Notes: generated from the sequence alone by a model not told the origin. Shown: positions 24,425 through 52,497, counted from the first letter of the stretch. The stretch is 64,000 bases of DNA from Patescibacteria group bacterium (GCA_022563395.1 JADFNM010000001.1:590342-654341); one strand, 5' to 3'. Program-made: numbers and translations.

Positions 24425-24499
24425 TTATCCACAGGTTTTTCTCAACAGCTCTTTTTTAAATCATCTCGCAATCTGTAGACTAGAAAATTAAGATAGTCA

Positions 24500-24564
24500 G
24501 TTCGAATTCTACCCGCGGAGCTCGTAAAGTTGAACCAAAGAATCGCCAAGAAGGCGGTTTTTTG
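24500..24564 (+). repeat. Junction repeat J0 (right-half unit with hairpin and T-tract)
   Basis: GTTCGAATTCTACCCGCGGAGCTCGTAAAGTTGAACCAAAGAATCGCCaagaaGGCGGTTTTTTG. Confidence 0.8.
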
Positions 24565-24626
24565 TTAGACTTAAAATAGAATGAAAAGTCGAATATAATA
24601 GTTATTAAAATAACCAAAAAAATATT

Positions 24627-25052: not shown

Positions 25053-25231
25053 GGTTCGCAGGCCGAGGCAAAGCTGTTTACTGAACCAGTAGAAGTCCTC
25101 GTCGAAGTCAGGACTCTGGAGAATTACTGAGAAGTTACTATCGACCCCTGACTTTTTCGTATGGTTGAATTTCCGAACGCCTTCGCAAGCATTAACCGCA
25201 TGGTTCGCCCAGCGGCCTTTATCTTTGCACC

Positions 25232-25308
25232 AAACAGGTTCTAACGTCGTCCAGTAGGGGGAGCTCGTAAAGTTGAATCAAAGAATCGTCAAACAGGCGG
25301 TTTTTTGG
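25232..25308 (+). repeat. Junction repeat J1 (full short form)
   Basis: AAACAGGTTCTAACGTCGTCCAGTAGGGGGAGCTCGTAAAGTTGAATCAAAGAATCGTCaaacaGGCGGTTTTTTGG. Confidence 0.85.
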
Positions 25309-25321
25309 TAGAGTAGGAGAC

Positions 25322-26455
25322 ATGAAATACCTTCTATTCGCACTCATTGGAATTGTTGTTCTGGCAGGTGGGTTTTTCTTTTTCCATTTTCAAGGAAACC
25401 CTGGAGAAGAGGAACCCTTATTTCCTCAAAAGGAGGAGTCAATGCCTGGAGAAAGCATTGAAACTGGGGCATCAAAAAAGGAAGTCTTGGAACAAGAGGA
25501 ATCTTCTGCGTCAGAATCAGCCCCTGCAATTTCTCAAGTTGAAGAAGCAACTGAAGAGGTCGTACAAAAAGATTTTAGGATGGCCTTTGTGCTTTTAATT
25601 CGTAGTTCTTCTGATGCAACGCCAGGAAGAATAAATAAAATTAATGAAATCAAAAATGCCTTTCCGAATTCTTTCAAAACGGCAACAAGAAATTTAGCAA
25701 CGATGGATACATCTTCAGACATTGTAATAATGACTGTAGACTCGGGTCCTGACATTACTTCATTTCTATTTGATTGGGGTAAATATCCACAAAAGTTTTA
25801 TGAAGATCACGAAGACAACTTTGACTTTATAAGTTTCTATACAGCATTCGAAGATCAACAATCTCAAGCTCATTTACCAGTAAGCAATGCCATAAAGGGT
25901 ATTGGAAATGTTAACTTAATGAATTCAGCAAGAGGATATGGTTCAGGGGGTAGGCTAAAAGGATTAAATTTTATGGGTGATATTACAATATTCGAAAGAT
26001 TGCAGCTTTTAACTATAGAATCTGCATTAAATGCTTTAAAACATGAAACAGGTCATCAGTGGTGTTGCTATATAATGGACAGTAGAGAAGAAAATGGCAA
26101 TGTGCCATTAATACAGGAGTATGTTCACTGGAACTTCTTTTTGGACTTAAAAAGTATCAATGATGGCTATATTGATCCATTAGGGGGAACTGATTGGATT
26201 GAAGTAGAGAAAAATAAATTCAAAGTATCAGATCGGTTAAGATATATAGAAGCTCGGTATTCACCGCTTACCTTGTACTTAATGGGACTTTTGTCAGCAG
26301 AAGATGTGCCACCAATACCATTAATAAGACCCTTTGATTCAGTTATAGAAAAATCAACCTATCCTCCTAATGAAGTTGATGGGATTAAAGAATTTGTTTC
26401 CATGGAAGACATAATTGCAAGAGAAGGAAAGTGGAGATGTTGTTTTAGTCCTTAA
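25322..26455 (+). CDS. Cassette 2: membrane-anchored putative zinc metalloprotease (HExxH)
   Basis: 377 aa with an N-terminal TM helix, an acidic linker and LKHETGHQW (HExxH). The gene is AT-rich: one 60-nt line (25621-25680) has 17 G+C. Confidence 0.6.
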   Translation: MKYLLFALIGIVVLAGGFFFFHFQGNPGEEEPLFPQKEESMPGESIETGASKKEVLEQEESSASESAPAISQVEEATEEVVQKDFRMAFVLLIRSSSDATPGRINKINEIKNAFPNSFKTATRNLATMDTSSDIVIMTVDSGPDITSFLFDWGKYPQKFYEDHEDNFDFISFYTAFEDQQSQAHLPVSNAIKGIGNVNLMNSARGYGSGGRLKGLNFMGDITIFERLQLLTIESALNALKHETGHQWCCYIMDSREENGNVPLIQEYVHWNFFLDLKSINDGYIDPLGGTDWIEVEKNKFKVSDRLRYIEARYSPLTLYLMGLLSAEDVPPIPLIRPFDSVIEKSTYPPNEVDGIKEFVSMEDIIAREGKWRCCFSP

Positions 26456-26610
26456 CTTTCAATGTTCTTACGTGAACATATCGAGTAGCAGAAGAGGAGG
26501 GAACATTCTAGGTAGACGATATCATCCGTAGGGGGGGTCTCTTTTGGGGTGTAGGGGGGATCTAAGGAACGAGTTCTGGAGTATGGAGAATCTCCTGGTT
26601 CTCTCTTATC

Positions 26611-26684
26611 CAGGTTCTAACAGCCTCCACGCTCCGGAGCTCGTAAAGTTGAGTCAAAGAATCGCCACGATGGCGGTTTTTTGG
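26611..26684 (+). repeat. Junction repeat J2 (full short form)
   Basis: CAGGTTCTAACAGCCTCCACGCTCCGGAGCTCGTAAAGTTGAGTCAAAGAATCGCCacgatGGCGGTTTTTTGG. Degenerate GTAGGGGGG units lie just upstream at about 26535-26580. Confidence 0.8.
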
Positions 26685-26696
26685 TATACTAAAAAT

Positions 26697-27329
26697 ATGA
26701 AGAAGACTATCTTGGTTCTTTTTGGAGGTACAGCTATTATTGTAGGTGGACTCTTTGTGTACGATAGTTATATTGTTGATCAGAGACAGGATAAGGAAGA
26801 AAGGATCCAGGAAAGTTTAACACAAGAGATAGTGAAGGATCTTGGTATTAATATCGCAGACTGGCAAACCTACCGCAACGACGAGTTCGGATTCCAGATG
26901 AAATATCCTGAAGAATGGGAGGTGAAAGAATTTGAGACAAAAATTGATATTGGTATTTTTGGATTGCCTAAACATTATTTCGTTACTGTATCTAAAAGCG
27001 AAAACCCAGAAGGTCTAAATGGTAAACAATATGCTCAACAATGGCTAAGGAGGTTAATTCGTACTCTTCCAGAACAGACAATTATATCAACAAGCACTGA
27101 GGCGATTGAGGTAGGTGGATATGGTGGGTCTATAGTTCGAGATTTTCATATAGAGATAGAAGATGAGCCAAACCTTGATGTGATTTTCGTAGTCTTACCT
27201 GATCAAGAACTAATCTACCAAATCCAATTCCCAATAGGTGAAGGGCAATTAAGCAAGCGTATTCTAGATCCTGAAAAAAATTACAGAACTGCAAATCAAA
27301 TCCTCTCTACGTTTCAGTTTATTAAATAG
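26697..27329 (+). CDS. Cassette 3: secreted/anchored protein with ADWQTYRN-EFGF-KYP-W motif
   Basis: The ATG at 26697 gives MKKTILVLFGGTAIIVGG (TM). The motif ADWQTYRNDEFGFQMKYPEEWEV is shared with cassette 5. The track start at 26544 runs through J2 and is rejected. Confidence 0.7.
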   Translation: MKKTILVLFGGTAIIVGGLFVYDSYIVDQRQDKEERIQESLTQEIVKDLGINIADWQTYRNDEFGFQMKYPEEWEVKEFETKIDIGIFGLPKHYFVTVSKSENPEGLNGKQYAQQWLRRLIRTLPEQTIISTSTEAIEVGGYGGSIVRDFHIEIEDEPNLDVIFVVLPDQELIYQIQFPIGEGQLSKRILDPEKNYRTANQILSTFQFIK

Positions 27330-27330
27330 A

Positions 27331-27430
27331 AGCAGGTTCTAATAATCCTCCGACTTGTTTTAACACAGACTCAGGATATTTGATTTCTTCTATCCACCTA
27401 AAAGTTCGAAAATCGTCCCACCCGCGGAGC
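27331..27430 (+). repeat. Junction repeat J3 (left motif plus a second degenerate unit, no hairpin)
   Basis: AGCAGGTTCTAAT..., about 60 nt, then ...AAAAGTTCGAAAATCGTCCCACCCGCGGAGC. Confidence 0.65.
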
Positions 27431-27434
27431 AATC

Positions 27435-27463
27435 TTGACAATATCACAAAAATGTGGTATTGT
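27435..27463 (+). promoter_or_regulatory. Promoter of the cassette 4 small ORF
   Basis: TTGACA, 17-nt spacer, TGgTATTGT (extended -10). A TAAGGAG Shine-Dalgarno lies before the ATG at 27500. Confidence 0.55.
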
Positions 27464-27499
27464 TTTAGTAGACTGAATTTGTACAGTAAGGAGCTAAGG

Positions 27500-27679
27500 A
27501 TGGCAAAGAAGATTGTTGTAATTCAGCGTGGTGACCCAGGCTACACAGACTGGTATGCTTCCACAGAGGAGGGGGGAGGAATTGGAGCGGGAAGCAATGG
27601 TAGTACAGCAGCAGAGGCAGTTGGGAATCTTATACTCAACCATTCTAAGCTGTTCGACTGTGAAGTCGAAATCAAATAG
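27500..27679 (+). CDS. Cassette 4: small hypothetical protein (59 aa)
   Basis: MAKKIVVIQRGDPGYTDWYAST..., preceded by TAAGGAG. The track ORF start at 27380 runs through J3 and is rejected. Confidence 0.5.
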   Translation: MAKKIVVIQRGDPGYTDWYASTEEGGGIGAGSNGSTAAEAVGNLILNHSKLFDCEVEIK

Positions 27680-27742
27680 TCCCGTAGCAGAAAAGTTCCA
27701 TTAGGTTCAATTCTGTATGGGACTTTTCTGTTAGGAAAATAT

Positions 27743-27890
27743 AAAACAGGTTCTAACATCGTCTCGTCAGTAGGACCATTTCTCGATTTAAACCAGCCAT
27801 ATATTCTGAGTCCTCTAAAAGTATAATAAGCTTTGGACTGGGGAGCTCGTAAAGTTGAATCAAAGAATCGTCAAACAGGCGGTTTTTTGG
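27743..27890 (+). repeat. Junction repeat J4 (long form, 96 nt between AAC and GTT)
   Basis: The left part is AAAACAGGTTCTAACATCGTCTCGTCAGTAGG. After a variable centre, the right part GGGGAGCTCGTAAAGTTGAATCAAAGAATCGTCaaacaGGCGGTTTTTTGG is identical to J1. Confidence 0.85.
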
Positions 27891-27902
27891 TAGAATATAT
27901 CC

Positions 27903-29792
27903 ATGCAAAAGAATGATTTTGAACACACTCAACGAGAAACATCCGAGCCCACTTCTTTGGGCTGGAAGAGTGCTTGGAAGGTTACAAAGGAGGTATATAT
28001 ATGGATCATTGGAGTTAATCTCCTTCTCCTATTGTTCAGTGTGGTATTTGGGGGTGTGCTCGATCCATTACTCGCATTGCTTTCTATAGTTTTGCCGATT
28101 GCTGGTATTGTTGTTGGAATCAAAAAATCATTTCCTCAGGCACAGAGAGGATTTCCAATCTTCCGTACAGCCTTTCTTATTGGAGTAATACCACTGGCTG
28201 CATTGTTTTTGTTTGGGCTATGGGCTATTCTCATAAATCTAGATCATCTAAGAACAAATGGTCTAGCAGCAGTTGTCCTATTGGTTGGACAAATTTCTGA
28301 GTTTGCTTCCATAGGACTTTTCTCTTCCTTGGTTTTTGGTACTGTATCCTACTTTGTTCTCTTAAAGAAAAGAATTTCCACGGATACCTCTTTTAAATCT
28401 ACATCTTTAAAATTTCTCGGATTATTTTTTCTCTTACTATTTATTTATATTTTCATAGGAGCAGTGTTTGCTTCTCTTCTTTTCATAACTTCTGCAGCTT
28501 GGTCTAAAGATAGCAAGTCTCAAGAAAATATATCAGAAGTTGAAATTAGCAAGCAAGATGAAACAGCCGATTGGCAAACTTACCGAAACGAAGAGTTTGG
28601 GTTTGAAATAAAATATCCTGATCAATGGGGAATAAGAGAGACAGGCGATGGTTCTTTTGAAATTTATATTCAACAAACAGGTGTAAGTGATATTGGCTCA
28701 ATAGTCTTTACAGGAGATTCAAATATCGATACAGCAATACAAAACCATCTGGCAAGGTATGTTGTTGGAACGCTAATTCAGAGAGAGGAAAATATAAGCT
28801 TGGATGGGAAATATGGAAAGCTTGTATATCAAAATACAGGTGGACGGGATTTGCAGGAGGATGATTTGAGTAAATGGTACTTTGTTGTAAATAATGGACA
28901 AATACTTAAACTTGGTCTTTATTTCCGCCCAAAAGGTTATGACTATGATGAATTATTTGATTTAATGCTCTCCACGTTTCGGTTCATTGAAAATGCGAGG
29001 GTAACTCTACCAACTACTTGTAAAGACGAATTAGATGGGGTTCCTGTTATTACTTCAATCTCACCAGCTTCTGGGTTAGTAGGTACAGAGGTTGAAATCA
29101 GAGGATGTAATCTTGGAGGATTTGAAGGTGACCTCGATGCTGTATTTGTACGGAGCGACGGGGAAGAAATCCCGCTTTATGGTGGAACATGGTATCCAGG
29201 ATATGGGGGAGCAGAACCAGGAAAACTTATCAAGATAATTGTACGGCCATACTGTGAATCTGGCTCTGTAACTGGACGTTATTCTGGAATTACCTCACCA
29301 TGCGAAACAGTAAATGTAACCCCAGGTACGTACAAAGTTTATACAGAAGCTTGGGGGAAGAAGAGCAATGAAGCTCTTTTTATTATTAAGTCTTCAGAGA
29401 ATATGCAAACGATTAAACTTTATTATTATAATGAAGAACATGATCCTAACTTTGATTGTATAGCTGAAGCAGTTATTTCGGTTGAGCGAGAGATTCCTAT
29501 AACAAATACACCCATTCAAGATACAGTCAAACTTCTTATAGAAGGAAAATTAACAGTAGAAGAAAAAGCCGCCGGATTTTCAACAGAGTTTCCTCACCCA
29601 GATTTCGAACTTCTTGGTGCAAACCTTACAGATGATGGAATTTTGACATTAGACTTTCCAGAAGTCTTTGGATTTACTAGTGGAGGATCATGTAGGGTTG
29701 GTATATTGAATGCAGAGATCGAAAAAACAGTTAAACAATTCTCACAAGTTAAAGAAGTTAAGTACACAAACATAGGGATATTTCAGCCATAA
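27903..29792 (+). CDS. Cassette 5: polytopic membrane protein with extracytoplasmic ADWQTYRN-motif, IPT/TIG-like and GerMN-like domains
   Basis: 629 aa with about 5-6 N-terminal TM helices and ADWQTYRNEEFGFEIKYPDQW. PVITSISPASGLVGTEVEIRGCNLGGF is IPT/TIG-like. C-terminal IKLYYYNE...IPITNTPIQDTVKLLIEG is GerMN-like. Confidence 0.7.
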   Translation: MQKNDFEHTQRETSEPTSLGWKSAWKVTKEVYIWIIGVNLLLLLFSVVFGGVLDPLLALLSIVLPIAGIVVGIKKSFPQAQRGFPIFRTAFLIGVIPLAALFLFGLWAILINLDHLRTNGLAAVVLLVGQISEFASIGLFSSLVFGTVSYFVLLKKRISTDTSFKSTSLKFLGLFFLLLFIYIFIGAVFASLLFITSAAWSKDSKSQENISEVEISKQDETADWQTYRNEEFGFEIKYPDQWGIRETGDGSFEIYIQQTGVSDIGSIVFTGDSNIDTAIQNHLARYVVGTLIQREENISLDGKYGKLVYQNTGGRDLQEDDLSKWYFVVNNGQILKLGLYFRPKGYDYDELFDLMLSTFRFIENARVTLPTTCKDELDGVPVITSISPASGLVGTEVEIRGCNLGGFEGDLDAVFVRSDGEEIPLYGGTWYPGYGGAEPGKLIKIIVRPYCESGSVTGRYSGITSPCETVNVTPGTYKVYTEAWGKKSNEALFIIKSSENMQTIKLYYYNEEHDPNFDCIAEAVISVEREIPITNTPIQDTVKLLIEGKLTVEEKAAGFSTEFPHPDFELLGANLTDDGILTLDFPEVFGFTSGGSCRVGILNAEIEKTVKQFSQVKEVKYTNIGIFQP

Positions 29793-29820
29793 AAATTGCA
29801 AAGCGAACAATATTTCAGCA

Positions 29821-29981
29821 AAAACAGGTTCTAACTTCGTCCAGTAGCCCCCAGCAATTCCTCCATTTCTTTCATTTCATTCTTAATATTTACCCAATCA
29901 AGAGTTCTAAACTCGTTCAATAGGGGGATTTGATTAGCCTTATTATACTTTTTCAAGAATCGCCACGGAGGCGGTTTTTTG
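29821..29981 (+). repeat. Junction repeat J5 (long form with a tandem degenerate unit)
   Basis: AAAACAGGTTCTAACTTCGTCCAGTAGCCCCC..., then ...AGAGTTCTAAACTCGTTCAATAGGGGGA..., then ...AAGAATCGCCacggaGGCGGTTTTTTG. Confidence 0.75.
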
Positions 29982-29994
29982 ATAAGGTAGAAAT

Positions 29995-30213
29995 ATGGGA
30001 ACTTTGATAACCATTAAAACCTACCCAGATAGGACAGAGGCAGAACTTGTAAAAGGAGTTCTTGAGTCAAAAGGTATCAAAGCTATGGTTTCTGCAGATG
30101 ATGCTGGCGGGATGAATCCCGCCCTCTTATGGGCCACAGGGGGAGTGCGCTTACTCGTTAAGAAGAAAGATATTCAGATGGCAACTGAGGTTTTAGAAAG
30201 TTTTAGTAAGTAG
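29995..30213 (+). CDS. Cassette 6: DUF2007-like small protein (putative signal-transducing fold)
   Basis: 72 aa. The pattern ...TEAELVKGVLESKGIKAMVSADD...GGVRLLVKKKDIQMATEVL matches the DUF2007 family layout as I recall it. Confidence 0.55.
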   Translation: MGTLITIKTYPDRTEAELVKGVLESKGIKAMVSADDAGGMNPALLWATGGVRLLVKKKDIQMATEVLESFSK

Positions 30214-30223
30214 ATAAATCCAC

Positions 30224-30250
30224 GAAACAGGTTTTAACTTCGTTCCATAG
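30224..30250 (+). repeat. Junction repeat J6 (left motif only)
   Basis: GAAACAGGTTTTAACTTCGTTCCATAG. The right half and hairpin are absent. Confidence 0.55.
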
Positions 30251-30334
30251 ACGACTCAAGGCGATATTGTTCTTTCAAGAAGTGTGTAGTATCATTTAAT
30301 ATAGTCATAATTCCTTAATCTAATACAATACAAG

Positions 30335-31348
30335 ATGAATAAAATCATTGTAGTTATACTTGTGGTGGTGGCAGCGATATTGCTCATCAGTACTATTACG
30401 GGGTCACCAACTGAGTCTCTTACTAAGACAACGTATGCCTCTATTCCTGATTCAGCTTTTGGGCCAGTTATTCCAGAAAAAGGATACCGCGTTGAAGAAA
30501 TAGGCGATGGCCTTTACTGGGTAACTGAAGGAGTCTACCATATGATGTTTTTAACAACTGGAGAAGGGGTTATCGTTGTTGATGCTCCGCCATCCATTGG
30601 AGAAAATATATTGAAAGCCATTGCAGAAACAACTGACGAACCCATAACTCATGTTATTTACAGTCACTCGCATGCAGATCATATCGCTGCAGCAAGTATG
30701 TACCCAGAAAATGCAATATATATTGCTCATGAAGAAACTGCTTTGAGATTAGCTCAAGATAGACCTTTTGAATTTGGTTTGTTTGTGGGAGGCTCTGATG
30801 TTCCAGATCCTACGGTAACCTTCTCAGACACCTATACATTAACTGTCGGCACGCAAACATTAGAGCTCGAGTACAAAGGACCTGCCCATAGACCAGGCAA
30901 TATCTTTATCTATGCTCCTCAGCAAAAAGTGTTGATGTTTATTGATGTTATCTTCCCCGGATGGACACCGTTTAAATGGTTAGCCGTTGCGGAAGACGTG
31001 CCTGCCTTTGTTGATGCTCATGATTGGGTATTAAGCTATGACTTTGATGCATTAATCAGCGGGCATGTAGGACGTTTAGGAACAAGAGAAGATGTTGAAA
31101 TGCAAAAAGAGTATATCTTAGATACTCAAGCTAATGCAGCGAAAGCACTACAAACAGTTGATTTTAGTGCTATTGCGGCGGAAATTGGGTTTTCAAATGT
31201 ATGGTTACTATTTGACACCTATTTAAATGCTGTCAGCGAAGAATGCGCAAAACTAACAGAGGAAAAATGGGTAGATAGATTAGGTGCGGTTGATGTATTT
31301 ACCAAAAGTCATTGTGATAAGTTAGTTGAGAGCTTAAGAATTGATTAG
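30335..31348 (+). CDS. Cassette 7: secreted metallo-beta-lactamase-fold hydrolase
   Basis: 337 aa with an N-terminal TM/signal sequence. Has the HxHxDH motif in HVIYSHSHADHIAA. Confidence 0.8.
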   Translation: MNKIIVVILVVVAAILLISTITGSPTESLTKTTYASIPDSAFGPVIPEKGYRVEEIGDGLYWVTEGVYHMMFLTTGEGVIVVDAPPSIGENILKAIAETTDEPITHVIYSHSHADHIAAASMYPENAIYIAHEETALRLAQDRPFEFGLFVGGSDVPDPTVTFSDTYTLTVGTQTLELEYKGPAHRPGNIFIYAPQQKVLMFIDVIFPGWTPFKWLAVAEDVPAFVDAHDWVLSYDFDALISGHVGRLGTREDVEMQKEYILDTQANAAKALQTVDFSAIAAEIGFSNVWLLFDTYLNAVSEECAKLTEEKWVDRLGAVDVFTKSHCDKLVESLRID

Positions 31349-31425
31349 TCTTATGGGGCTAGTAATCCTCAAAATACTGTAATCATAGTTTAATTTTAAA
31401 AGCGTTGACTCTCTGTTTTATTGAG

Positions 31426-31500
31426 AAAACAGGTTCTAACGTCGTCCAGTAGGGGGGAGCTCGTAAAAGTGAACCAGAGAATCGCCAAGTAGGCGGTTTT
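31426..31500 (+). repeat. Junction repeat J7 (full short form)
   Basis: AAAACAGGTTCTAACGTCGTCCAGTAGGGGGGAGCTCGTAAAAGTGAACCAGAGAATCGCCaagtaGGCGGTTTT. The TGGTAGAGT box is displaced to 31524-31532. Confidence 0.8.
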
Positions 31501-31569
31501 GAGTTTACACTGAGTACTCGAAGTGGTAGAGTGAAGTAAAGAGTTTCTTAAACCAATATCTACACGTTT

Positions 31570-32502
31570 ATGAAAGCAGTTCAAATTAATAAATATGGCG
31601 ACAACAGTGTCGTTGAAGTCAATGAGAAAGCAGCCAAACCAGAGGTGTCTGCTGGTACAGTTTTAGTGGAAGTCCACGCCGCAAGCGTTAATCCTGTGGA
31701 CTGGAAAATCCGGGAAGGATATCTTAAAGAGATGATGCAGCTTGAGTTTCCAGCCACCCTGGGGGTTGATTTTTCAGGTGTAATAGCAGAGGTTGGTGAG
31801 AGTGTTTCCGGGTTTAAGCCAGGGGATGAAGTCTATGGCATGGCCAGCGCCATGACTGGCGGTTCGTTTGCTGAATTTATAATTGTACCATTTGCATCAG
31901 TAGCCCTTAAGCCAAAAAGCGTCTCGCATAGTGAGGCTGCGGCCGTCCCACTTACGGGATTAAGTGCGTTGCAAGTCTTAAAGGACCAGATGAATATTTC
32001 CAACGGACAAAAAGTACTAATTCATGGCGGTGCTGGTGGAATCGGCACGTTGGCAATTCAGATAGCAAAACAGCTTGGCGCTGAAGTTGCAACAACCGCA
32101 AGTAAAGAGGATAGTGACATTGTGAAAGAATTGGGTGCGGATACGGTTATTGATTATAAGAATGAAAAGTTTGAGGATATGGTGAAAGACTACGATGCGG
32201 TTTTTGACACTATCGGCGGTGAAACATATCAGCGATCATTTCAAGTACTCAAAAAGGGTGGAGTTATCGTTTCCATGGTCGAGAAGCCGAATGAAGAACT
32301 GATGAAGCAATACGAAGTTGAGGCGAAGATGCAATTTACTCAACCCAACGGCGCGCAGCTTGCAGAACTTGCCACCTTGGTTGATGAAGCGAAGATGAAA
32401 ATAAAGATTGACCGCGCATTTCCCTTGGATGCAGTAAAAGAAGCACTTGATTATTTACAAAACAGCCACCATCAAGGCAAGGTGGTGATTACTGTTAAAT
32501 AA
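31570..32502 (+). CDS. Cassette 8: NADPH:quinone oxidoreductase / MDR-family zinc-type dehydrogenase
   Basis: 310 aa. Has VLVEVHAASVNPVDWK, a GxGxxG-like cofactor loop (IHGGAGGIGTLAIQ) and C-terminal GKVVI. Confidence 0.85.
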   Translation: MKAVQINKYGDNSVVEVNEKAAKPEVSAGTVLVEVHAASVNPVDWKIREGYLKEMMQLEFPATLGVDFSGVIAEVGESVSGFKPGDEVYGMASAMTGGSFAEFIIVPFASVALKPKSVSHSEAAAVPLTGLSALQVLKDQMNISNGQKVLIHGGAGGIGTLAIQIAKQLGAEVATTASKEDSDIVKELGADTVIDYKNEKFEDMVKDYDAVFDTIGGETYQRSFQVLKKGGVIVSMVEKPNEELMKQYEVEAKMQFTQPNGAQLAELATLVDEAKMKIKIDRAFPLDAVKEALDYLQNSHHQGKVVITVK

Positions 32503-32534
32503 TAAGTAAGTTTTTTTGATTGTTATTTGCCTAT

Positions 32535-32612
32535 AAAACAGGTTCTAACGTCGTCCAGCAAGGGGAGCTCGTAAAGTTAAGCCAAAGAATCGCCATGCAG
32601 GCGATTTTTTGG
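32535..32612 (+). repeat. Junction repeat J8 (full short form)
   Basis: AAAACAGGTTCTAACGTCGTCCAGCAAGGGGAGCTCGTAAAGTTAAGCCAAAGAATCGCCatgcaGGCGATTTTTTGG. The G-to-A change in the 3' arm keeps the stem paired. Confidence 0.85.
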
Positions 32613-32624
32613 TAGCTTTAAGAT

Positions 32625-33053
32625 ATGCAGACTAAGCTTTTCTTGAAAGAAACGGTTCTTCTTACAAAGTCTTTTGATGCACATCAAGATTGGGAGGTTC
32701 CAATCCCCGGATTTTTTATAATTGCCTCAAAAGATACTACAAAAAAATCAATAGCTGAGTTTACAAGTGAAGAAGTAAAAGAGCTTGGTAGTGTAATCCA
32801 TAGAGTACGGGTGGGGATGCGAGAAGTATTAGACATAAAAGATGTATATCTATTACAGAACGAAGCTTCCAAACACGGGTTTCACGTCTGGATGTTTCCT
32901 CGTTATTCATGGATGGAGAAGTTTGGATGGAGCCCTAAGTCTATAGCTTTGATTATGGAACATGCAAACAAACACATGAAAACAGACGGTAATATTAAAG
33001 AAGTAAAGGATGCGGTTATTCGGGTAAGAGAATATCTTGAAAACAGGTCCTAG
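32625..33053 (+). CDS. Cassette 9: HIT-like fold protein
   Basis: 142 aa. Has a degenerate histidine-triad-like segment HGFHVWMFPR. The stop codon lies inside the J9 left motif (GAAAACAGGTCCTAG). Confidence 0.55.
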   Translation: MQTKLFLKETVLLTKSFDAHQDWEVPIPGFFIIASKDTTKKSIAEFTSEEVKELGSVIHRVRVGMREVLDIKDVYLLQNEASKHGFHVWMFPRYSWMEKFGWSPKSIALIMEHANKHMKTDGNIKEVKDAVIRVREYLENRS

Positions 33054-33156
33054 TATCATTTCACCAACAATTCTTCTATTTCTCTCATCAAGTTTTCAGG
33101 GTTTTCAATAGCTTCTATCCACCTAAAAGTTCTAAACATGTCCCATAGGGGGGAGC
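33039..33156 (+). repeat. Junction repeat J9 (terminal: left motif plus a second degenerate unit)
   Basis: GAAAACAGGTCCTAG..., about 70 nt, then ...AAAAGTTCTAAACATGTCCCATAGGGGGGAGCT. It abuts the palindrome at 33165. Confidence 0.7.
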
Positions 33157-33164
33157 TACTTCCG

Positions 33165-33205
33165 CTTAAACGAGATTTAAGCAGCACTGCTTAAATCTCG
33201 TTTAG
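33165..33205. repeat. P-family palindrome (array / LTD-module boundary)
   Basis: CTTAAACGAGATTTAAGCAGCACTGCTTAAATCTCGTTTAG followed by TTATCCACAGGTTTTCCTCAGCAGCTCTTTT. It is a direct repeat of 24385-24457. Confidence 0.85.
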
Positions 33206-33282
33206 TTATCCACAGGTTTTCCTCAGCAGCTCTTTTCAACCCAACTCAAAACCCTGTACAATAGAAAAGGTGTGTCGAATAC

Positions 33283-33321
33283 CTCCTTAATGAAATTAAG
33301 GATGCTTTAATTTCATTTAGG
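33283..33321. repeat. P-family palindrome upstream of the 33346 gene
   Basis: CTCCTTAATGAAATTAAGGATGCTTTAATTTCATTTAGG. This and the following ~35 nt are repeated at 38498-38552. Confidence 0.8.
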
Positions 33322-33345
33322 CACTATTAACCTTTTGGATTTTGT

Positions 33346-34008
33346 ATGCAAAAACAAGTGCTTATTATAGGGGCAATCCTTCTAGTGATTGTTATTGGAG
33401 GGATTTTTTTGTTGGTGAATCAAACAGAAACTAAATCTCGTTTAGGAGAACCTGAATACAGTACCACCCCAACCCAGTGGAGCCAAGCCGAAGATTACAA
33501 AATAGAAGAAACTCCCACCGGCACCGTTGTGGCGAACGAAAAAGCTGGCTTCAGCTTCAAAGTCCCTGAGGGGTGGAGTGTGGAAGGAGAGGAGGGGATT
33601 ACGGTAGGAGAATATGCACTTGTAATCCTTTCTTCTGAGGCAGAATTTGAAGAAGATCAGTATGGCAATAAAACTACATTTCTCAGAGGATGTGCTATTA
33701 GCTTAGAAACCTTATATCAGAAAGACGAGGTTGTTTCTGTCAAGAATTTAATTGATACTTATAATGAGAAACCCGAGGCAAAACCAGAAGACGAAAGCAT
33801 TATTATTGTTGATAATCAGTCAGCTCTTAGGGCGATTTTCGTACCAGAAGACCTAGAGATTTTAGAAAAAATCGGAGAGTTTATTCAAATACGAGTTCCA
33901 ATTTCTGAAGAAACTCTAATAGGGTTTGGGATAAGGATGAAGCCAGAATACAGATCTGATTGCATTGCTGAATTCGACAGCTTTATCTCAAGTTTCTCCA
34001 TTAACTGA
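33346..34008 (+). CDS. Secreted/anchored hypothetical protein
   Basis: 220 aa with an N-terminal TM helix (VLIIGAILLVIVIGGIFLLV). Contains a half P-family element in-frame (CTAAATCTCGTTTAGGAG encoding KSRLG) at 33431-33448. Confidence 0.65.
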   Translation: MQKQVLIIGAILLVIVIGGIFLLVNQTETKSRLGEPEYSTTPTQWSQAEDYKIEETPTGTVVANEKAGFSFKVPEGWSVEGEEGITVGEYALVILSSEAEFEEDQYGNKTTFLRGCAISLETLYQKDEVVSVKNLIDTYNEKPEAKPEDESIIIVDNQSALRAIFVPEDLEILEKIGEFIQIRVPISEETLIGFGIRMKPEYRSDCIAEFDSFISSFSIN

Positions 34009-34028
34009 GTATAATTTTGTATCTACTA

Positions 34029-37000
34029 ATGGAGAAAGGATCTCTTCTATTCATTGGCATCTCCTTAGTTCTTGGGTTATCTCTCTTTTTCTTAGCTTTT
34101 GCGCAGTATGAAGAGACGTTTGCTTTGTCAGAAAAAGATATTAAGGACGCACTCATACTATCTAAAAAAGATACTACTCTTATCCTGGGCGTTGCGCAAA
34201 GCGAAACCTCTAAACTAGTACCTAATGGTAGAATTTTTGCTTACTCATCTCGAGGACAAGCCGCACTCACACTTTTTAGAAGCTCTTCTAGAAAAGCGGT
34301 ACTGGATTTTCTCCCCGGATTTGCTGCTACCGAGACCGTAAAAGTTGTTATTAAAGCAGCCTCCTCGTTCCAGAAGCTTTCAACAGTAACAGCAAAAGAA
34401 GTTTTAGAAGAAATAGAAAAACAGACGGTTCAAAAAGCGGTAGAAACTGGAGTCAATTGGCTTTTTCAAAATAAGATAAAGATCGGGAGTGGGAGTATAA
34501 CAAAAACGTACCGTAACTATGAAGGCGTTCAGACAGAAGCAATTTTCCAGTACGTAGTGGCTTATGAGAGTATTGATTCAGAGAGCGCTAAGGCGATGGT
34601 GGAGTTTTATTCTCCAGATTTCGTTGATGCCCCAGAGGCAAAGAGTTCCATTTCGGGTTTTATCGGATTTGTCGGTGATTCGCCTCACAGTGGCACCGTA
34701 GATCCTTTTGTGATCCATCTAGAGACTCAAGTTACAAAATCCGCCTTAGGCTGGGTAGTCGATTCGTCTGCTCGAACAAAAATCACGGTCGAGTTTCCCG
34801 ATGAGGTGCCGAGGTTGGAGCTGACAAAGGAATTGCCCTACCCAATAGAAGAACAAAAGATTAATCTCCTCAATAAGCTTACTGCGATAAAGAAAGTTTT
34901 TGATACACTTGGAAATGCTGGAATTGAGATATTTAACATTCTTAGCAAGGGGGTGGGAATGGTACAAGGAACTGCCGAGGATTTTTTTTCCTTTATATCC
35001 AAGGTAATCTCTCTTGGTGGCGCCGGTTTAGTAGACCCTGCTGTTGAATCTCAACTTAACGAGATTAAGGAAGAGTTAGATGTAAAAGAGAATCAAGCGC
35101 AACTTAGTTTAACTAAGGATGAGGGCGATGAGCCTTTCCTTCAACCCCAATCTGAAGTTAACCAAGTAGAATTAAGCGAGACTAAGGAGGATTTGAAACT
35201 ACAGGAAAACCAGGAGGGTGAGGAGAAACTTAGTCTCGTGAAGGAGATATGCGTCATTAATCCTCTGAAATCTCCTGTTTTTGGCGGTGTAATTTTAAGC
35301 GAGATCGCTTGGATGGGTACTGTTGCCTCGGCAAATGATGAGTGGATTAGATTGCAAAATGTTTCCCATCTGCAGAATATCTCAAATGTGTCGGTAAACC
35401 TGCAAGGGTGGCAGCTCATTGATAAAAATGGGGATATTGAGGTGATTTTTGAACAGGACCACCTTATTTCTTCACGGGGAGCATTTCTTTTGGAGCGTAC
35501 CGATGATACCTCGTTGCCGAGTGTTTCAGCAGACTTCATTTACACAGGGGTTCTCAATAATACAAATGAGGCATTGTATCTTTTTGACAGCAACTGTGTG
35601 TTGCGAGACAAGGTGGAAGCTAGTCCTAACTGGCCAGGGGGCGATAATGATATCAAGCAACCTATGGTGCGTCTTTCAGATTTAAGCTGGGAGCAGGCAA
35701 AACTTGATTTAGTCAAGGATGAAGAGGTGCAAGAAAGGGTGTTTGCAGGATGCCTTGATGGACAAATAAATATTAACGCGGTAAATAACGACTTGCTGCA
35801 AGAGATTGTTCAGATTGGAGACGTCACAGCAGAACAAATTATTGAGGCGCGTGTTTTGCAGGCCTTTTATACGATAGACGAGCTTGAGAGAATTTCAGGA
35901 ATTGCAGAGAGAACCGTTGCAAAAATTAAAGAGCAAGGGTGGGCCTGCGCAGCAGACGCGAAGGATGTCAGCTTTAGGTCCTTTCAAAAGCCAGTTTCAT
36001 ACGGAGGAGGGGGAGGTGGCTCTTCAGGCTCTCAATCTTCGCAGGAGAATCAAAGCGAAGAAGCGCAACTTTGTTCTCAAGCAAATATAGGTAGTCCCAG
36101 CAATACTCCCGTTATCATCAACGAGATAGCTTGGATGGGCACTACAAATTCTGCAAATGACGAGTGGATAGAATTAAAGAATGTTAGTGAAGAAGAGGTT
36201 ACACTTGAAGGATGGCAATTACTTGATGCCAGCGGTCAGATTGAAGTTATTTTTACAAACCAGGATATCATTGCTGCATCTGGCTTTTATATTCTGGAGC
36301 GCACAGACGATACTACTCTTTTGGGTATCACAGCAGATACTATCTATGTGGGAAGTTTGGGTAATAGCGACGAATCTTTAAGACTTTTTGATAATACCTG
36401 TACTCTTATCGATGAGATTATAGCTGATCCGGATTGGCCAGGGGGTGATAACGATACGAAATATACTCTTGAAAGAGCAGAAGATTTATCCTGGCAGACC
36501 CATTATGGAGAGGATAATAGCGGGACCCCGGGTGCAGAGAATAGTACGGCTCCAGAGGATCCACCGACGCCCGTTGTCTTGCCCCAAACCGTGGTTATAA
36601 ATGAGGTAGCTTGGATGGGAACAATAGCTTCTGCAAACGAGGAGTGGTTAGAACTTTACAATACCACGGCTGCAGATGTTGATCTCATTGGGTGGAAACT
36701 GCAAGCAGAAGATAGTGCCCCAACCATTGAGTTGATAGGTACTATTGCAGCGAATAGTTACTTTTTGTTAGAGCGGACTGATGATACTACAATTTCTGAC
36801 ATCGCTGCAGACCAGATATATACAGGTGCTCTAGAAAATGAGGGAGAAATTTTGAAACTCTATGATGCAGAAAATAATCTTATTGATATTGTTGATGCGT
36901 CCGCTGGCTGGATTGCAGGAGATAATGCAGTAAAACAGAGTATGGAGCGCATAGATGCGGCAAAAGGGGGGTCTGACCCCCCTAACTGGGCAAATAACAA

Positions 37001-38438
37001 TCTTATTACACATAACGGAGAAGATTCAGATGGGGGATATGTGAATAGCACTCCACGAGCGCAAAACAGTGTTTCTTATTCTTCTACAACAATAATTAAC
37101 ACTGCGTTTCTCCGCTTTAACGAATTTGAAGAAGTCACCCTTGCTTTTCTGGGAAGTCCCTACGAAATGCTAGGGAATATTGAAGTGCCCCCTGGCAAGA
37201 CATTGATTGTGGAACCAGGGGTCACTATTCGCTTGAAAGCTCTAAAGTCCCACGTGATTATTCATGGTACGCTGCAGGCTGTGGGCAGTGAAGATAACGT
37301 TATTACCTTTATTGACGGCGCTGACGGAAATTTTGGGAATTGGTGCGGCTTTTCCTTTTCTTCTACCAGCACTAACTCTCAGTTGGAATACGTGAAGGTA
37401 GAACAATCAGCGAGCGTTACACCCACCTGCGGCACATTAGGAGGAAAGACCTATGCTTTGTTTGTGGATGGGACTGACATCATCATGAAGAATTCTGTCA
37501 TTAATAAAGGTAGTTCTGATCACAAACTCTCTCTTAGAAACTCAAATTCCACTATTGATTCTCTGACGATTACAGGTGATACAACCAAGACAGCGTTCGC
37601 TGCAGGAATATACATAGAAGGAGGAAGTCCGAGCATAACCAACTCTACGATTAAAGATAGCGCCATTGGTATATTTGTGGAGAATAATGTGTCGGACCCT
37701 GCAAGCTTGCCTACTATTACTAATAATACCCTAACGGATAATACCTATGCTATTATTCTGGCGGGAGCCGATGCTGTGGTTTCTGGCAATACGGCAACCG
37801 GCAATACGTATAACGGTATTTGGGTAAAAGATGCCATATCAACTGCAAACGCCGTCTGGGAAGCAGACACCATTCCCTACATTGTAAACCAGCTGGAAAT
37901 AGAAGCAGGAAAAACCCTAACGATACAATCTGGTGTTGTTGTAAAGTTTCTTGCCGCACCCCTAAGTAATACGGAATTTATCGTACACGGCACCCTATTA
38001 GTTCAAGGCACCGCAGCAAACCAGGTGGTATTTACAAGAATTGGGGATGACACAGTAGGAGGAGATACAAACGGAGAAGGGCTTTCTTCTACCGTATACT
38101 GGAAAAGAATGCGCTTTACTTCAACAAGCACTGGTTCTGTTTTGAATCATACGGTTTTGAAATATGGGGGGCATGCGGCTGTGAAATATATAGGGGAGAC
38201 AGAAGGAGATGGTGCTTTGCATGTACAAGGGGAGGTTGATTTGCAGAATGTGACTGTGCAAGATAGCCCTAGGGTTGGCTTGTATTCTTCAGGTATAATA
38301 ACGGGGTCTGGTATAACGCTTGTAGATAATGCATATGGCCTTAACCTTGTAATGGCAGAGTGCCCGGTGCTTACCAATGTAACCATTTCTGGTTCTGGAG
38401 AAGATTTCTACCCTGGTTCTTTGGAGTGCCAATTTTGA
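34029..38438 (+). CDS. Giant secreted protein: three lamin-tail (LTD) domains, ComEA-like helix-hairpin-helix region and C-terminal right-handed beta-helix
   Basis: The ATG at 34029 gives MEKGSLLFIGISLVLGLSLFFLAF. LTD signature [IL]xEIAWMGT..SANDEW[IL]EL.N......L.GW.L occurs at about 35289, 36111 and 36591. An HhH segment is at about 35770-35940 (NINAVNNDLLQEIVQIGDVTAEQIIEAR...ISGIAERTVAKIKEQG). PbH1-like repeats span about 37090-38438. Confidence 0.8.
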   Translation: MEKGSLLFIGISLVLGLSLFFLAFAQYEETFALSEKDIKDALILSKKDTTLILGVAQSETSKLVPNGRIFAYSSRGQAALTLFRSSSRKAVLDFLPGFAATETVKVVIKAASSFQKLSTVTAKEVLEEIEKQTVQKAVETGVNWLFQNKIKIGSGSITKTYRNYEGVQTEAIFQYVVAYESIDSESAKAMVEFYSPDFVDAPEAKSSISGFIGFVGDSPHSGTVDPFVIHLETQVTKSALGWVVDSSARTKITVEFPDEVPRLELTKELPYPIEEQKINLLNKLTAIKKVFDTLGNAGIEIFNILSKGVGMVQGTAEDFFSFISKVISLGGAGLVDPAVESQLNEIKEELDVKENQAQLSLTKDEGDEPFLQPQSEVNQVELSETKEDLKLQENQEGEEKLSLVKEICVINPLKSPVFGGVILSEIAWMGTVASANDEWIRLQNVSHLQNISNVSVNLQGWQLIDKNGDIEVIFEQDHLISSRGAFLLERTDDTSLPSVSADFIYTGVLNNTNEALYLFDSNCVLRDKVEASPNWPGGDNDIKQPMVRLSDLSWEQAKLDLVKDEEVQERVFAGCLDGQININAVNNDLLQEIVQIGDVTAEQIIEARVLQAFYTIDELERISGIAERTVAKIKEQGWACAADAKDVSFRSFQKPVSYGGGGGGSSGSQSSQENQSEEAQLCSQANIGSPSNTPVIINEIAWMGTTNSANDEWIELKNVSEEEVTLEGWQLLDASGQIEVIFTNQDIIAASGFYILERTDDTTLLGITADTIYVGSLGNSDESLRLFDNTCTLIDEIIADPDWPGGDNDTKYTLERAEDLSWQTHYGEDNSGTPGAENSTAPEDPPTPVVLPQTVVINEVAWMGTIASANEEWLELYNTTAADVDLIGWKLQAEDSAPTIELIGTIAANSYFLLERTDDTTISDIAADQIYTGALENEGEILKLYDAENNLIDIVDASAGWIAGDNAVKQSMERIDAAKGGSDPPNWANNNLITHNGEDSDGGYVNSTPRAQNSVSYSSTTIINTAFLRFNEFEEVTLAFLGSPYEMLGNIEVPPGKTLIVEPGVTIRLKALKSHVIIHGTLQAVGSEDNVITFIDGADGNFGNWCGFSFSSTSTNSQLEYVKVEQSASVTPTCGTLGGKTYALFVDGTDIIMKNSVINKGSSDHKLSLRNSNSTIDSLTITGDTTKTAFAAGIYIEGGSPSITNSTIKDSAIGIFVENNVSDPASLPTITNNTLTDNTYAIILAGADAVVSGNTATGNTYNGIWVKDAISTANAVWEADTIPYIVNQLEIEAGKTLTIQSGVVVKFLAAPLSNTEFIVHGTLLVQGTAANQVVFTRIGDDTVGGDTNGEGLSSTVYWKRMRFTSTSTGSVLNHTVLKYGGHAAVKYIGETEGDGALHVQGEVDLQNVTVQDSPRVGLYSSGIITGSGITLVDNAYGLNLVMAECPVLTNVTISGSGEDFYPGSLECQF

Positions 38439-38443
38439 TTCTG

Positions 38444-38484
38444 CTTAAACGAGATTTAAGCAACATTGCTTAAATCTCGTTTAG
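38444..38484. repeat. P-family palindrome (right boundary of LTD module)
   Basis: CTTAAACGAGATTTAAGCAACATTGCTTAAATCTCGTTTAG, starting 6 nt after the stop of the giant gene. Confidence 0.85.
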
Positions 38485-38497
38485 TTTCTCATAACTA

Positions 38498-38525
38498 GAT
38501 TAAGGAATCCTTAATTTCATTTAGG
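38498..38525. repeat. P-family element plus duplicated upstream region of the 33346 gene
   Basis: GATTAAGGAATCCTTAATTTCATTTAGG, then CACCATTAACC...TTTTGCATGCAAAAA. This parallels 33296-33357, including the ATG-CAA-AAA start. Confidence 0.75.
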
Positions 38526-38564
38526 CACCATTAACCTCTTTTATTTTGCATGCAAAAAAAGAAA

Positions 38565-38591
38565 GGCGTCCAGTTCCCCCTACTGGACGCC
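38565..38591 (-). terminator. Intrinsic terminator of the minus-strand HTH gene; carries a 15-nt core of the cassette junction repeat in inverted orientation
   Basis: Stem GGCGTCCAGT/ACTGGACGCC with a 7-nt loop and a T-rich tract on the minus strand. The minus-strand sequence CGTCCAGTAGGGGGA (38575-38589) is identical to the J1/J7 core. Confidence 0.6.
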
Positions 38592-38617
38592 TCTTGGGTT
38601 CTCGAGACCCTTTTCAC

Positions 38618-38854
38618 TTAGCTGACCCTCGTTATCTCCAGAGTTTCGCCTGGAGCGAGGGCAACTTTACGGACGTTGATGCCGAGCTTGAGGAACCAGT
38701 AGTTCAACGTGGCTTTGCTGACGTCAAGCTGGCTGGCTATCTCCTGAAGGTCCGATTCCTCCTGGTCGTTGATCATTGCCGGGAGAAGCTGCTCCAAAGG
38801 TTGTTTGAAGTGTCTCTCCACAGACAACATGAGGTTGGTCTTTTTTTGGGCCAT
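38618..38854 (-). CDS. Small helix-turn-helix DNA-binding protein (GC-rich, foreign-looking)
   Basis: 78 aa starting at MAQKKTNL..., preceded by AGGAG 9 nt upstream. The HTH-like segment is LQEIASQLDVSKATLNYWFLKLGI. Confidence 0.55.
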   Translation of the reverse strand: MAQKKTNLMLSVERHFKQPLEQLLPAMINDQEESDLQEIASQLDVSKATLNYWFLKLGINVRKVALAPGETLEITRVS

Positions 38855-40072: not shown

Positions 40073-40576
40073 ATGGAGGAAATCAATCAATATTTCAGCC
40101 AGGTATACGACCAATACGTCAAGCGCATCTACCGGTTCATCTACCTTAAGGTCAGTTTAACGGAGACGGCAGAAGACCTGTCGTCTGAGGTGTTTTTGCG
40201 TCTGTACCGGCATATTCAAAAGAACAATCCCATCATTGAAAACCCCCAGGCCTTTCTCTACCAAATAGCAAGAAATGTGGTGGCAGACCACTACCGGAGC
40301 AAAAAAGTCTCTTTAGTGTCTATTGAGAGGACCACCATTGAGATTGAGGATATTAGCGAGAAAACAAGGGAACAGGGCGAGATAAGCTTGGAAATGGACC
40401 GGATAAGGCAGGCCATAGCCCAGCTGCAAGACGACTACCAAGACCTTATTATCTGGCGGTACATAGACGAGCTCACCGTACCCGAAATAGCCCAAATTAC
40501 CGGCAAGACCGAAAAGAATGTGAGAGTAGGAGTCCACAGGGCTATTAAAGCCCTTAAGGGCAAAGTAGCTGCTTAA
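40073..40576 (+). CDS. ECF-type RNA polymerase sigma-70 family factor
   Basis: 167 aa. Region 2 is YVKRIYRFIYLKV...AEDLSSEVFLRLY. Region 4 is YIDELTVPEIAQITGKTEKNVRVGVHRAIKALK. Confidence 0.88.
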   Translation: MEEINQYFSQVYDQYVKRIYRFIYLKVSLTETAEDLSSEVFLRLYRHIQKNNPIIENPQAFLYQIARNVVADHYRSKKVSLVSIERTTIEIEDISEKTREQGEISLEMDRIRQAIAQLQDDYQDLIIWRYIDELTVPEIAQITGKTEKNVRVGVHRAIKALKGKVAA

Positions 40577-40590
40577 ATCTCGTTTAAGCA
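40570..40590. repeat. P-family half element/hairpin across the sigma-factor stop codon
   Basis: TGCTTAAATCTCGTTTAAGCA (stem TGCTTAAA/TTTAAGCA). Confidence 0.6.
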
Positions 40591-51237: not shown

Positions 51238-51265
51238 CATATCTTTTTTGGGTTTTCTGTGTGCT

Positions 51266-52491: not shown

Positions 52492-52497
52492 CAGTAC

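Follow-up and report, generated by a model that had tools for sequence, protein, structure and literature searches.

REP-like hairpin repeats bracket a variable lamin-tail-domain operon in a Patescibacteria chromosome

A 64,000-nucleotide stretch of a Patescibacteria group bacterium genome (GCA_022563395.1 JADFNM010000001.1:590342-654341, one strand; hereafter the window, with positions counted from its first letter) contains a two-gene operon encoding a 220-amino-acid protein, p220, and a 1,473-amino-acid protein with lamin-tail domains (LTD). An earlier reading made from the DNA alone, which we call the sequence-only reading, proposed that this module is bracketed by composite direct repeats. 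It described two blocks, here named P and block 2, in the same order in both flanks (33165 and 38444 for P), a third copy of P at 24385, and a duplicated start at the right end that opens only a 23-codon stub. All of these features were recovered. P and block 2 are not private to the LTD module, as both belong to a dispersed family of hairpins resembling repetitive extragenic palindromic (REP) elements.

The window is core chromosome of an organism of the Candidate Phyla Radiation (CPR). It encodes pth, lepB, hisS, ftsA/ftsZ, comEC, iscS, htrA, clpB, secA, and secD, among other genes, and its closest ClpB matches are CPR metagenome-assembled genomes. The region is reproduced in four independent assemblies with at least 99.96% identity. 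Because these assemblies show the same architecture, an assembly artifact is ruled out as its source. GC content is 0.36 to 0.44 over 25-35 kb, below that of both flanks. Pfam scans covered 38 open reading frames (ORFs) of the window, comprising all long ORFs of 23.6-41.4 kb and 20 of the largest elsewhere. The operon and its borders contain the following features.

24385-24424, unstranded: P1, a perfect hairpin doublet of two inverted CTTAAA-N5-TTTAAG units, 21 nt past the stop codon of a trypsin-like protease gene
33165-33205, unstranded: P2, a 41-bp palindrome (-16.7 kcal/mol, z -9.6)
33205-33216, plus strand: conserved box GTTATCCACAGG, adjoining the P2 hairpin and also found upstream of p220 in relatives L131, L132, L126, L121, L124, and L013
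33233-33262, plus strand: promoter-like site of p220-LTD (TTTTCA-18-TACAAT), the core of which is 100% conserved in L132 despite the missing operon
33285-33321, plus strand: left block 2, the doublet CCTTAATGAAATTAAGG-ATG-CTTTAATTTCATTTAGG in the 5' leader of p220 (-9.3 kcal/mol, z -4.5)
33322-33354, plus strand: the leader native to p220, with its start (CACTATTAACC...ATGCAAAAA); conserved in the corresponding leader of L131
33346-34008, plus strand: p220, the first gene of the module (220 amino acids), with a hydrophobic N-terminal stretch seen by eye and a weak PsbP-like match
34017-38438, plus strand: LTD gene (1,473 amino acids), with three lamin-tail domains and a ComEA-like HHH_3 domain
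38444-38484, unstranded: P3, 6 nt past the LTD stop codon, with CAACATTG rather than CAGCACTG at its center
38499-38525, plus strand: right block 2, truncated to ATTAAGG-AAT-CCTTAATTTCATTTAGG and retaining the second hairpin unit only
38526-38558, plus strand: duplicate of the p220 leader through codon 3 (85% identity with 33322-33354)
38562-38594, minus strand: intrinsic terminator of a convergent small helix-turn-helix (HTH) gene, from a terminator scan
38618-38854, minus strand: the small HTH gene (78 amino acids as called in the source assemblies), also next to the slot in L129 and L132

P consists of two inverted 17-nt units, CTTAAA-N5-TTTAAG. At 33165-33205 it reads CTTAAACGAGATTTAAGCA-GCAC-TGCTTAAATCTCGTTTAG (41 bp). 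Each of the three copies is predicted to fold into a perfect 17-bp stem with a 4-nt loop; at -16.7 kcal/mol and a z score of about -9, this fold was matched by 0 of 200 shuffles. P3 met a loose terminator scan, with five GC pairs and the tail TTTCTCATAA; P1 and P2, which are followed by TTATCCACAGG, were not listed by it. An exact search for the palindrome returned 0 matches in 185,579 species genomes, the source species not being among them. One P arm gave 29 matches in JGI metagenomes, and we attribute these to chance because every one is a lone arm in which the palindrome is absent. Rfam likewise found no family in the window or at the corresponding slot in eight related loci. The box GTTATCCACAGG fits the DnaA-box consensus but belongs to a larger palindromic element, copies of which are present within LTD genes. 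A replication origin, suggested by a perfect DnaA-box match (TTATCCACA), was rejected: cumulative GC skew climbs monotonically across the window, box matches number just 5 against 1.6 expected, and the box sits within the palindromic element that is also in LTD coding sequence.

Block 2 is a pair of inverted CCTTAAT-N3-ATTAAGG units. Its two copies beside the operon, 33288-33354 and 38492-38558, are 84% identical over 67 nt (repeat family D11), and both end in ATGCAAAAA. The spacer between P and block 2 is 83 nt on the left, with the conserved box and promoter, versus only 16 nt on the right, where the truncated block 2 folds weakly (-3.8 kcal/mol). At 33346, ATGCAAAAA opens the 220-codon p220 gene; translation from 38550 confirmed that it there opens only MQKKKGVQFPLLDASWVLETLFT, 23 codons ending in a stop (38550-38621). 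The sequence-only reading had this stub run into GC-rich foreign DNA, which proved wrong: the stub enters the terminator and 3' end of the small minus-strand HTH gene, which is kept in relatives at 56-57% identity. Pfam returned insignificant HTH matches or nothing for the small convergent genes and for the minus-strand peptides of the array repeats described below.

The right junction varies between strains. L003 is a co-occurring strain that is 99.9% identical to the window, with 52 differing aligned positions over 10.7 kb; 41 of the 52 fall within a 180-bp patch at 38384-38563. The loop bases of P3 differ in L003, and a 17-nt indel removes the stub. The leader copy at 38526-38558 is absent from L003 and from the right flanks of the relatives L131 and L126. 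Since the tail of L003 resembles those two flanks, the stub allele is the derived state, and we infer from these alignments that it formed when 33 nt spanning the p220 leader and start were copied onto the right block 2. Both window flanks carry the same lineage-specific P doublet where L131 and L132 have a single unit, which argues that the two flanks of the window exchanged sequence.

Units related to P and block 2 occur well beyond the operon. The 64-kb window holds 12 perfect units versus 0.73 expected from dinucleotide shuffles (maximum, 4 in 200), for a motif set chosen after inspection of the data. The 13-mer AAATCTCGTTTAG is present in 10 copies against 0.10 expected, a roughly 100-fold excess on both strands, and the block-2 core in 12 copies against 0.64; these excesses exclude chance for the core motifs. 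Doublets lie at 454, 853, 15187, 15916, 24385, 33165, 33285, 38444, and 47213; the folds of P and of block 2 have z scores from -4.5 to -9.6. Further block 2 sites were found at 838, 15172, 15901, and 47213. Units are located in 5' leaders, at the 3' ends of genes, and, in frame, within the coding sequences of pth, p220, and LTD. Those away from the borders include the following.

454-497, unstranded: P-type doublet with arms reversed, in frame in pth, encoding LPKSRLGAPKRDLGN
853-890, unstranded: block-2 doublet of diverged sequence, within the divergent promoter region of pth and lepB
33431-33448, plus strand: p220-internal unit CTAAATCTCGTTTAG, in frame, encoding TKSRLG
35054-35118, plus strand: LTD linker units ACTTAACGAGATTAAGG (QLNEIKE) and ACTTAGTTTAACTAAGG (QLSLTKD), starting at 35054 and 35102
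40570-40590, unstranded: single unit TGCTTAAATCTCGTTTAAGCA, overlapping the sigma-factor stop codon
47213-47260, unstranded: hybrid P/block-2 doublet, overlapping the stop codon of a 567-amino-acid gene (-17.7 kcal/mol)

Stem pairing is maintained as the sequences diverge. Unit 1 of block 2 is 97.9% paired across eight loci, with AU-to-GC swaps at two of six pairs. The p220-internal unit is present in L121 and L124 with compensated stems (CTAAA..TTTAG to CTAAG..CTTAG) and absent from L131 and L126. Among 16 LTD-internal units from five lineages, the fifth position of the stem is invariably paired, as A-T or G-C, changing LN..IK to LS..TK.

Several side observations concern units within coding sequence. 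In pth (minus strand, 168-728), the 44-nt perfect P-family palindrome at 454-497 coincides with an 8-amino-acid insertion not seen in solved Pth structures. L131 has a similar palindrome, GAGATTTAGGAGCTCCTAAATCTC, at 20074-20097, inside the coordinates of a called HTH gene (19752-20318). The acidic linkers of LTD proteins are repeated palindromic units encoding (K/Q)L(N/S)xx(K), at 35054-35118 in the window, 11708-11997 in L124, 11762-11796 in L126, and 11737-11903 in L121; the N-to-S and I-to-T changes in them are coupled, so that the DNA palindrome is preserved. The LTD genes of L121, L124, and L126 also contain a 31- to 37-nt palindrome, CTGTGGAAAACTTAAT...ATTAAGTTTTCCACAG, which encodes ENLISLSFPQ.

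These locations bear on a purely regulatory reading, according to which P is a terminator and block 2 a hairpin or operator of the 5' untranslated region, the flanks being alike through common function with no role in rearrangement. P does lie 6-21 nt past stop codons, P3 is listed as terminator-like, and in the distant CPR genome L139, ligA is followed by a P-type doublet whose loops differ. In the window, L131, and L132, block 2 lies between a -10-like box and the Shine-Dalgarno (SD) sequence of genes that are not related; it precedes GH328, MT237, p220, and a 205-amino-acid gene in L132. L126 keeps this architecture, with compensating changes in the stems. For block 2, then, the behavior of a generic upstream element, which the sequence-only reading had set against its own proposal, is indeed seen; variation at the repeats, the absence of which it had likewise set against its proposal, does exist at the right junction. 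Shared function would not account for the duplication of unique, nonpalindromic sequence (the p220 leader with its ATG, and 32 nt past P1 and P2), or for a right flank that has a leader and SD-like tail but no gene to serve. In addition, the in-frame units in pth, p220, and the LTD gene cannot be terminators, and strain variation is concentrated exactly at the repeat. We regard an exclusively regulatory origin of the bracket as quite unlikely.

The abundance of the 13-mer also recalls DNA uptake signals, that is, a sequence with lineage-specific variants recognized in natural transformation, like the DNA uptake sequences (DUS) of Neisseria, which often occur as inverted pairs after or within genes. 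The 100-fold excess on both strands, the coding and noncoding sites, and the lineage-specific variants fit this idea, as do ComEC at 12361-13806 and the ComEA-like HHH_3 domain of the LTD protein. However, the density is just about 1 per 6 kb, and even in a single genome both loops and stems differ in sequence, so that only about 5 nt remain as a conserved core. An uptake role for the repeats is thus very unlikely.

We examined the same locus in relatives, which were found via p220 and protease homologs. The gene order ClpB, protease, slot A, p220, LTD, slot B, HTH protein, sigma factor is shared by L121, L124, L126, and L131 and in part by L013 and L015. The p220-LTD pair is present in L131, L126, L121, L124, and L013, at the same locus down to 81% ClpB identity, and absent from L132 (ClpB 92.7% identical to that of the window), L129 (91.3%), L012, and L016; L012 lacks the whole 24.4-39.3 kb stretch. 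The content of slot A, just past the protease gene, is an array of genes in the window, a Y1 transposase gene in L121 and L138, a PaaX-like gene in L124, two small genes in L126 and L131, and a gene for a 205-amino-acid membrane protein in L132. Slot B is variable too. The locus therefore combines conserved flanks with differing content, as is characteristic of a replacement hot spot or minimal mobile element. tRNA scans found no tRNA in the window and none at the slot, which rules out a tRNA-targeted island. Given that p220-LTD occupies the same locus in distant relatives, with its own conserved promoter, it is a resident operon at this hot spot and not a roaming cassette.

The locus bears traces consistent with loss and exchange of the operon. 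The L132 junction consists of a hairpin unit, the box, the p220 promoter (core 100% identical), one block 2, and then a right-type tail and terminator, which is exactly what a crossover between two block-2 copies would leave. Between the 205-amino-acid gene and this orphan promoter, L132 has a GC-rich stretch of about 200 nt (11640-11850) that looks structured by eye and has no Rfam match. Between L121 and L124, identity reaches 96% for ClpB and 88% for the protease yet drops to 52% for p220 and 54% for LTD; conversely, L131 and L124 share 74% identity in p220 and just 48% in the protease. Identities of p220 and LTD at odds with those of the flanking genes indicate allele exchange at a fixed locus. 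Of the suggestion that the LTD module is gained, lost, or duplicated as a unit, loss or replacement therefore stands (L132, L129, and the incongruent identities), and duplication was seen in no assembly. The related proposal that the entire 24.4-38.5 kb region is built of segments exchanged via repeats held in that the segments are repeat bounded and missing from L012. The module is not a free cassette, and no recombinase was found among the scanned ORFs of the window.

Two other segments of the window are bracketed by direct repeats that include units of the family, namely, a methyltransferase gene (MT237, 15228-15941) and the 8.8-kb cassette array in slot A.

15172-15236, plus strand: 65-nt repeat copy 1, with a -10-like TAGAAT, a block-2 doublet, an SD sequence, and ATGCGTATG, upstream of MT237
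15901-15965, plus strand: 65-nt repeat copy 2, 98% identical, upstream of a glycosyl-hydrolase gene
24386-24455, plus strand: 70-nt direct repeat copy 1, made of P, the TTATCCACAGG box, and 21 nt, at the left edge of the array
24456-33166, plus strand: cassette array of about nine co-oriented genes (GC, 0.36-0.42), bracketed by the 70-nt repeat
33167-33236, plus strand: 70-nt direct repeat copy 2 (family D5), 97% identical to copy 1

The equivalent site in L131 has a single 65-nt repeat copy and no methyltransferase gene, as expected for an empty site, and the array is absent from every relative examined. The repeats inside the array are of a different kind. They fold no better than shuffles (z -0.4 to +1.7), and their 3' half is a generic small hairpin with a T-run and an extended -10 that likewise precedes the hydrolase gene in L126, L129, and L132. 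When translated from the minus strand, the array repeats (24492-32631) encode ..YELPLLDDVRTC.. in their 5' half, and longer versions at 27331-27425, 29822-29930, and 33066-33145 give small ORFs or fragments, such as MFRTFRWIEAIENPENLMREIEELLVK at 33066-33146, with no Pfam match. Rather than recombination hairpins, they appear to be the remains of a family of small minus-strand genes. Separately, we noted a motif, AAACAGGTTCTAAC (and variants), that marks the 3' ends of all array genes and of MT237 (15862, 25233, 27745, 29823, 30226, 31428, and 32537); it also follows small inserted segments in L129 (1749 and 7011) and may be a signature of captured genes.

With an adjacent array of single co-oriented genes, conserved repeats of about 80 nt, and gene-sized repeat-bracketed units, the region resembles an integron in which P and the array repeats would serve as attC and the LTD module as the last cassette; the P arms CTAAAC...GTTTAG even recall R''/R' boxes. 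The folding of both elements refutes an attC-based, canonical integron on structural criteria: the array repeats do not fold, and P is a perfect palindrome with no extrahelical bases and no unpaired spacer. Moreover, the scanned ORFs include no IntI, the repeats contain promoter-like elements, and the LTD module comprises two genes under a promoter of their own. We consider this identity hardly credible.

The Y1 transposase genes of slot A lie beside the protease gene in both L121 and L138. The sole meaningful NCBIfam match of the L121 protein was to REP-associated tyrosine transposase (RAYT; E value 4e-19, 68.9 bits, cutoff 80), and by eye it has an HUH-like motif, THIHL, and YIHLNP. RAYT-like genes were found at 9024-9770 in L121, 1-720 in L138, and 9960-10727 in L139, where the gene is inside a type IV pilus operon. 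Hairpins flank the gene on both sides in L121 and L139 and on one side in L138 (the side covered by the contig), and L138 has further copies of its flanking hairpin elsewhere in the locus (6512-6557). The RAYT-like gene is in the same slot in two genomes, and vertical inheritance is therefore suggested, as for RAYTs. The family comprises 2,744 proteins at an E value of 1e-15 or lower, and the named members among the best 120 are mostly from CPR lineages.

These genes raise the question of a dedicated cassette system, an integron analog in which P and block 2 would be sites of a trans-acting site-specific or Y1/HUH (RAYT, IS200-like) recombinase, and the LTD module, the methyltransferase gene, and the array genes would be cassettes that leave as circles and return at hairpin sites. 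Three independent segments are bracketed by direct repeats with strong hairpins, single-repeat empty sites exist for both MT237 (L131) and the LTD module (L132), the family reaches distant sites including coding regions, and the hairpin stems flanking the RAYT-like gene in L121 and L138 begin with AACTTA. Nevertheless, no recombinase is encoded in the window, and the LTD module is never at another locus. The 65- to 70-nt duplications reach past the hairpins into promoter and leader, which homologous recombination fits better, and Y1 transposition makes no long duplications. Comparison with an IS200/IS605-type unit shows traits both for and against: hairpins are found at both ends of three segments, these have the 65- to 70-nt duplications of ordinary sequence, and the window has no tnpA. 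A dedicated cassette system is rather unlikely in our judgment. Also unlikely, and more speculative still, is hairpin-repeat gene capture in Patescibacteria, in which REP-like doublets would act as attachment or homology sites, possibly served by the RAYT-like Y1 protein, at which single genes, arrays, and even a large surface-protein operon would loop out, pass between lineages, and insert again. It would be integron-like in function with different parts, and the duplicated leader would give a captured gene a promoter-proximal hairpin, an SD sequence, and a start codon.

The explanation that we think probable is that the bracket combines a lineage-specific REP-like hairpin family with a copied leader, at a replacement hot spot. 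The family unit is a CTTAA/CTAAA/CCTTA stem with a 3- to 6-nt loop, often in inverted doublets. The left side comprises, in order, P after the protease gene, the TTATCCACAGG box, the promoter, the block-2 doublet in the leader, and the start codon, and the right side is a promoterless, partly truncated copy of this arrangement plus 33 nt of p220 leader with three codons, forming the stub. The locus between the ClpB-protease and HTH-sigma genes is the hot spot, with both adjacent slots gathering unrelated genes. The repeats, the hairpin family with its covarying stems, the synteny, the pattern of operon presence and absence, the incongruent identities, and the strain polymorphism are all observed. 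Recombination at the repeats is the best-supported mechanism, and we infer it, the enzymes acting, and the roles in RNA from the comparisons above. The repeats would provide portable homology, and perhaps hairpin substrates, for this recombination: a crossover between repeats would delete the operon or loop it out; ectopic conversion would keep the flanks alike within each genome and produce the stub; and single-crossover (Campbell-type) integration at a repeat would leave an insert, such as the methyltransferase gene or the 8.8-kb array, bracketed by 65- to 70-nt duplications. At the RNA or DNA level the role is probably REP-like, with P as a 3'-end hairpin (terminator or stabilizer) and block 2 as a 5'-leader hairpin.

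A number of points weigh against this explanation. No integrase, recombinase, or Y1 gene was present among the 38 window ORFs scanned with Pfam. A RAYT of the source genome was not seen either, as no source-genome tag appears by name among the best 120 of the 2,744 homologs, and the hairpins flanking RAYT-like genes in relatives have a GC-rich core (..ACTTACACCCCGGGGGTGTAAGT..), unlike P and block 2. Of the alternative junctions anticipated by the sequence-only reading, the different right junction of L003 was found, whereas no deletion, circle, or duplication junction occurs in any source-population contig, including those retrieved via exact p220 or protease copies; short contigs end inside the repeats, as with any repeat. 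At 85% identity, the two leader copies are too far apart for the stub to be a recent event in this strain. The arrangement in L132 may represent the ancestral empty state and not a deletion, and the crossovers of allele replacement may lie in the conserved flanking genes and not in the hairpin repeats. The unit count rests on one 64-kb window of the genome. Finally, units inside coding regions are atypical for REPs.

The closest known parallel is the REP/REPIN and RAYT system of Pseudomonas and Enterobacteria (PMC3116915, PMC3337134). Shared with it are short palindromic units, inverted doublets and long hairpins, lineage-specific variants, positions just past genes, and, here in relatives, a single-copy, hairpin-flanked Y1 gene in a fixed syntenic position (PMC3116915, PMC3337134). 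Unlike REPs, the units described here start with CTTAA, CCTTA, or CTAAA, the GTAG/CGTC tetranucleotide head being absent; they also occur in 5' leaders and in frame in genes, and no more than 3-8 nt separate the two units of a doublet. The host belongs to the CPR, and the tie between the AT-rich units and the RAYT-like gene is putative. In a full-text literature search, "Candidate Phyla Radiation" and "repetitive extragenic palindromic" came together in a single paper, with one mention of each.

Other systems share single traits with the locus. Rickettsia palindromic elements are palindromic repeats of 100-150 nt that lie in frame in protein genes, housekeeping genes included, and add short peptides; the present units are likewise found in frame in genes but are 17-41 nt long and mostly intergenic. 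In the minimal mobile elements, or replacement hot spots, of naturally competent bacteria such as Neisseria, a slot between conserved genes has strain-variable content whose exchange is best explained by homologous recombination after DNA uptake, often with Correia elements or DUS pairs at the borders. The variable slot between conserved genes is common to both, whereas at the present locus the borders carry extended duplications of leader and hairpin sequence, and the duplicated start codon serves again for inserted genes. The pdif/Xer modules of Acinetobacter plasmids are gene modules bounded by dyad sites of two 11-nt arms and a 6-nt spacer. Our segments are also discrete modules with short dyad-symmetric borders, but the 11-6-11 architecture is absent from them, and the Acinetobacter modules are on plasmids.

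Two further repeat sets were noted in the window. An 86-nt inverted repeat with 97% identity (747-832 and 57015-57100, 56 kb apart) contains GGGGTCGGGGGAAAC...CCCCCGTGTAGGAAA, and a motif akin to it lies between protease and HTH genes in L012 (about 4180-4230). Repeat families D7, D13, and D17 occupy 49348-52727, where ORF 49413-50282 is a spermidine-synthase-like gene. DNA repeats tie this ORF to the similar-sized neighbors 50374-51237 and 52498-53367, which suggests that the three are tandem paralogs.

CPR/Patescibacteria have tiny genomes with few recognized mobile elements, and to our knowledge, how they vary surface proteins and acquire accessory genes is poorly understood. At the locus described here, an operon for a signal-anchored PsbP-like protein and a 1,473-residue LTD/ComEA-like protein evolves fast and is deleted or allele swapped between close lineages, with the same hairpin family at its borders and at those of two other inserted segments. 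If the repeats do not drive exchange, the finding would be an unremarkable instance of REP-like elements in a hot spot. If they do, they would represent a simple, recombinase-light route of gene capture in ultrasmall bacteria and would be useful as a marker for variable loci in CPR metagenome-assembled genomes.

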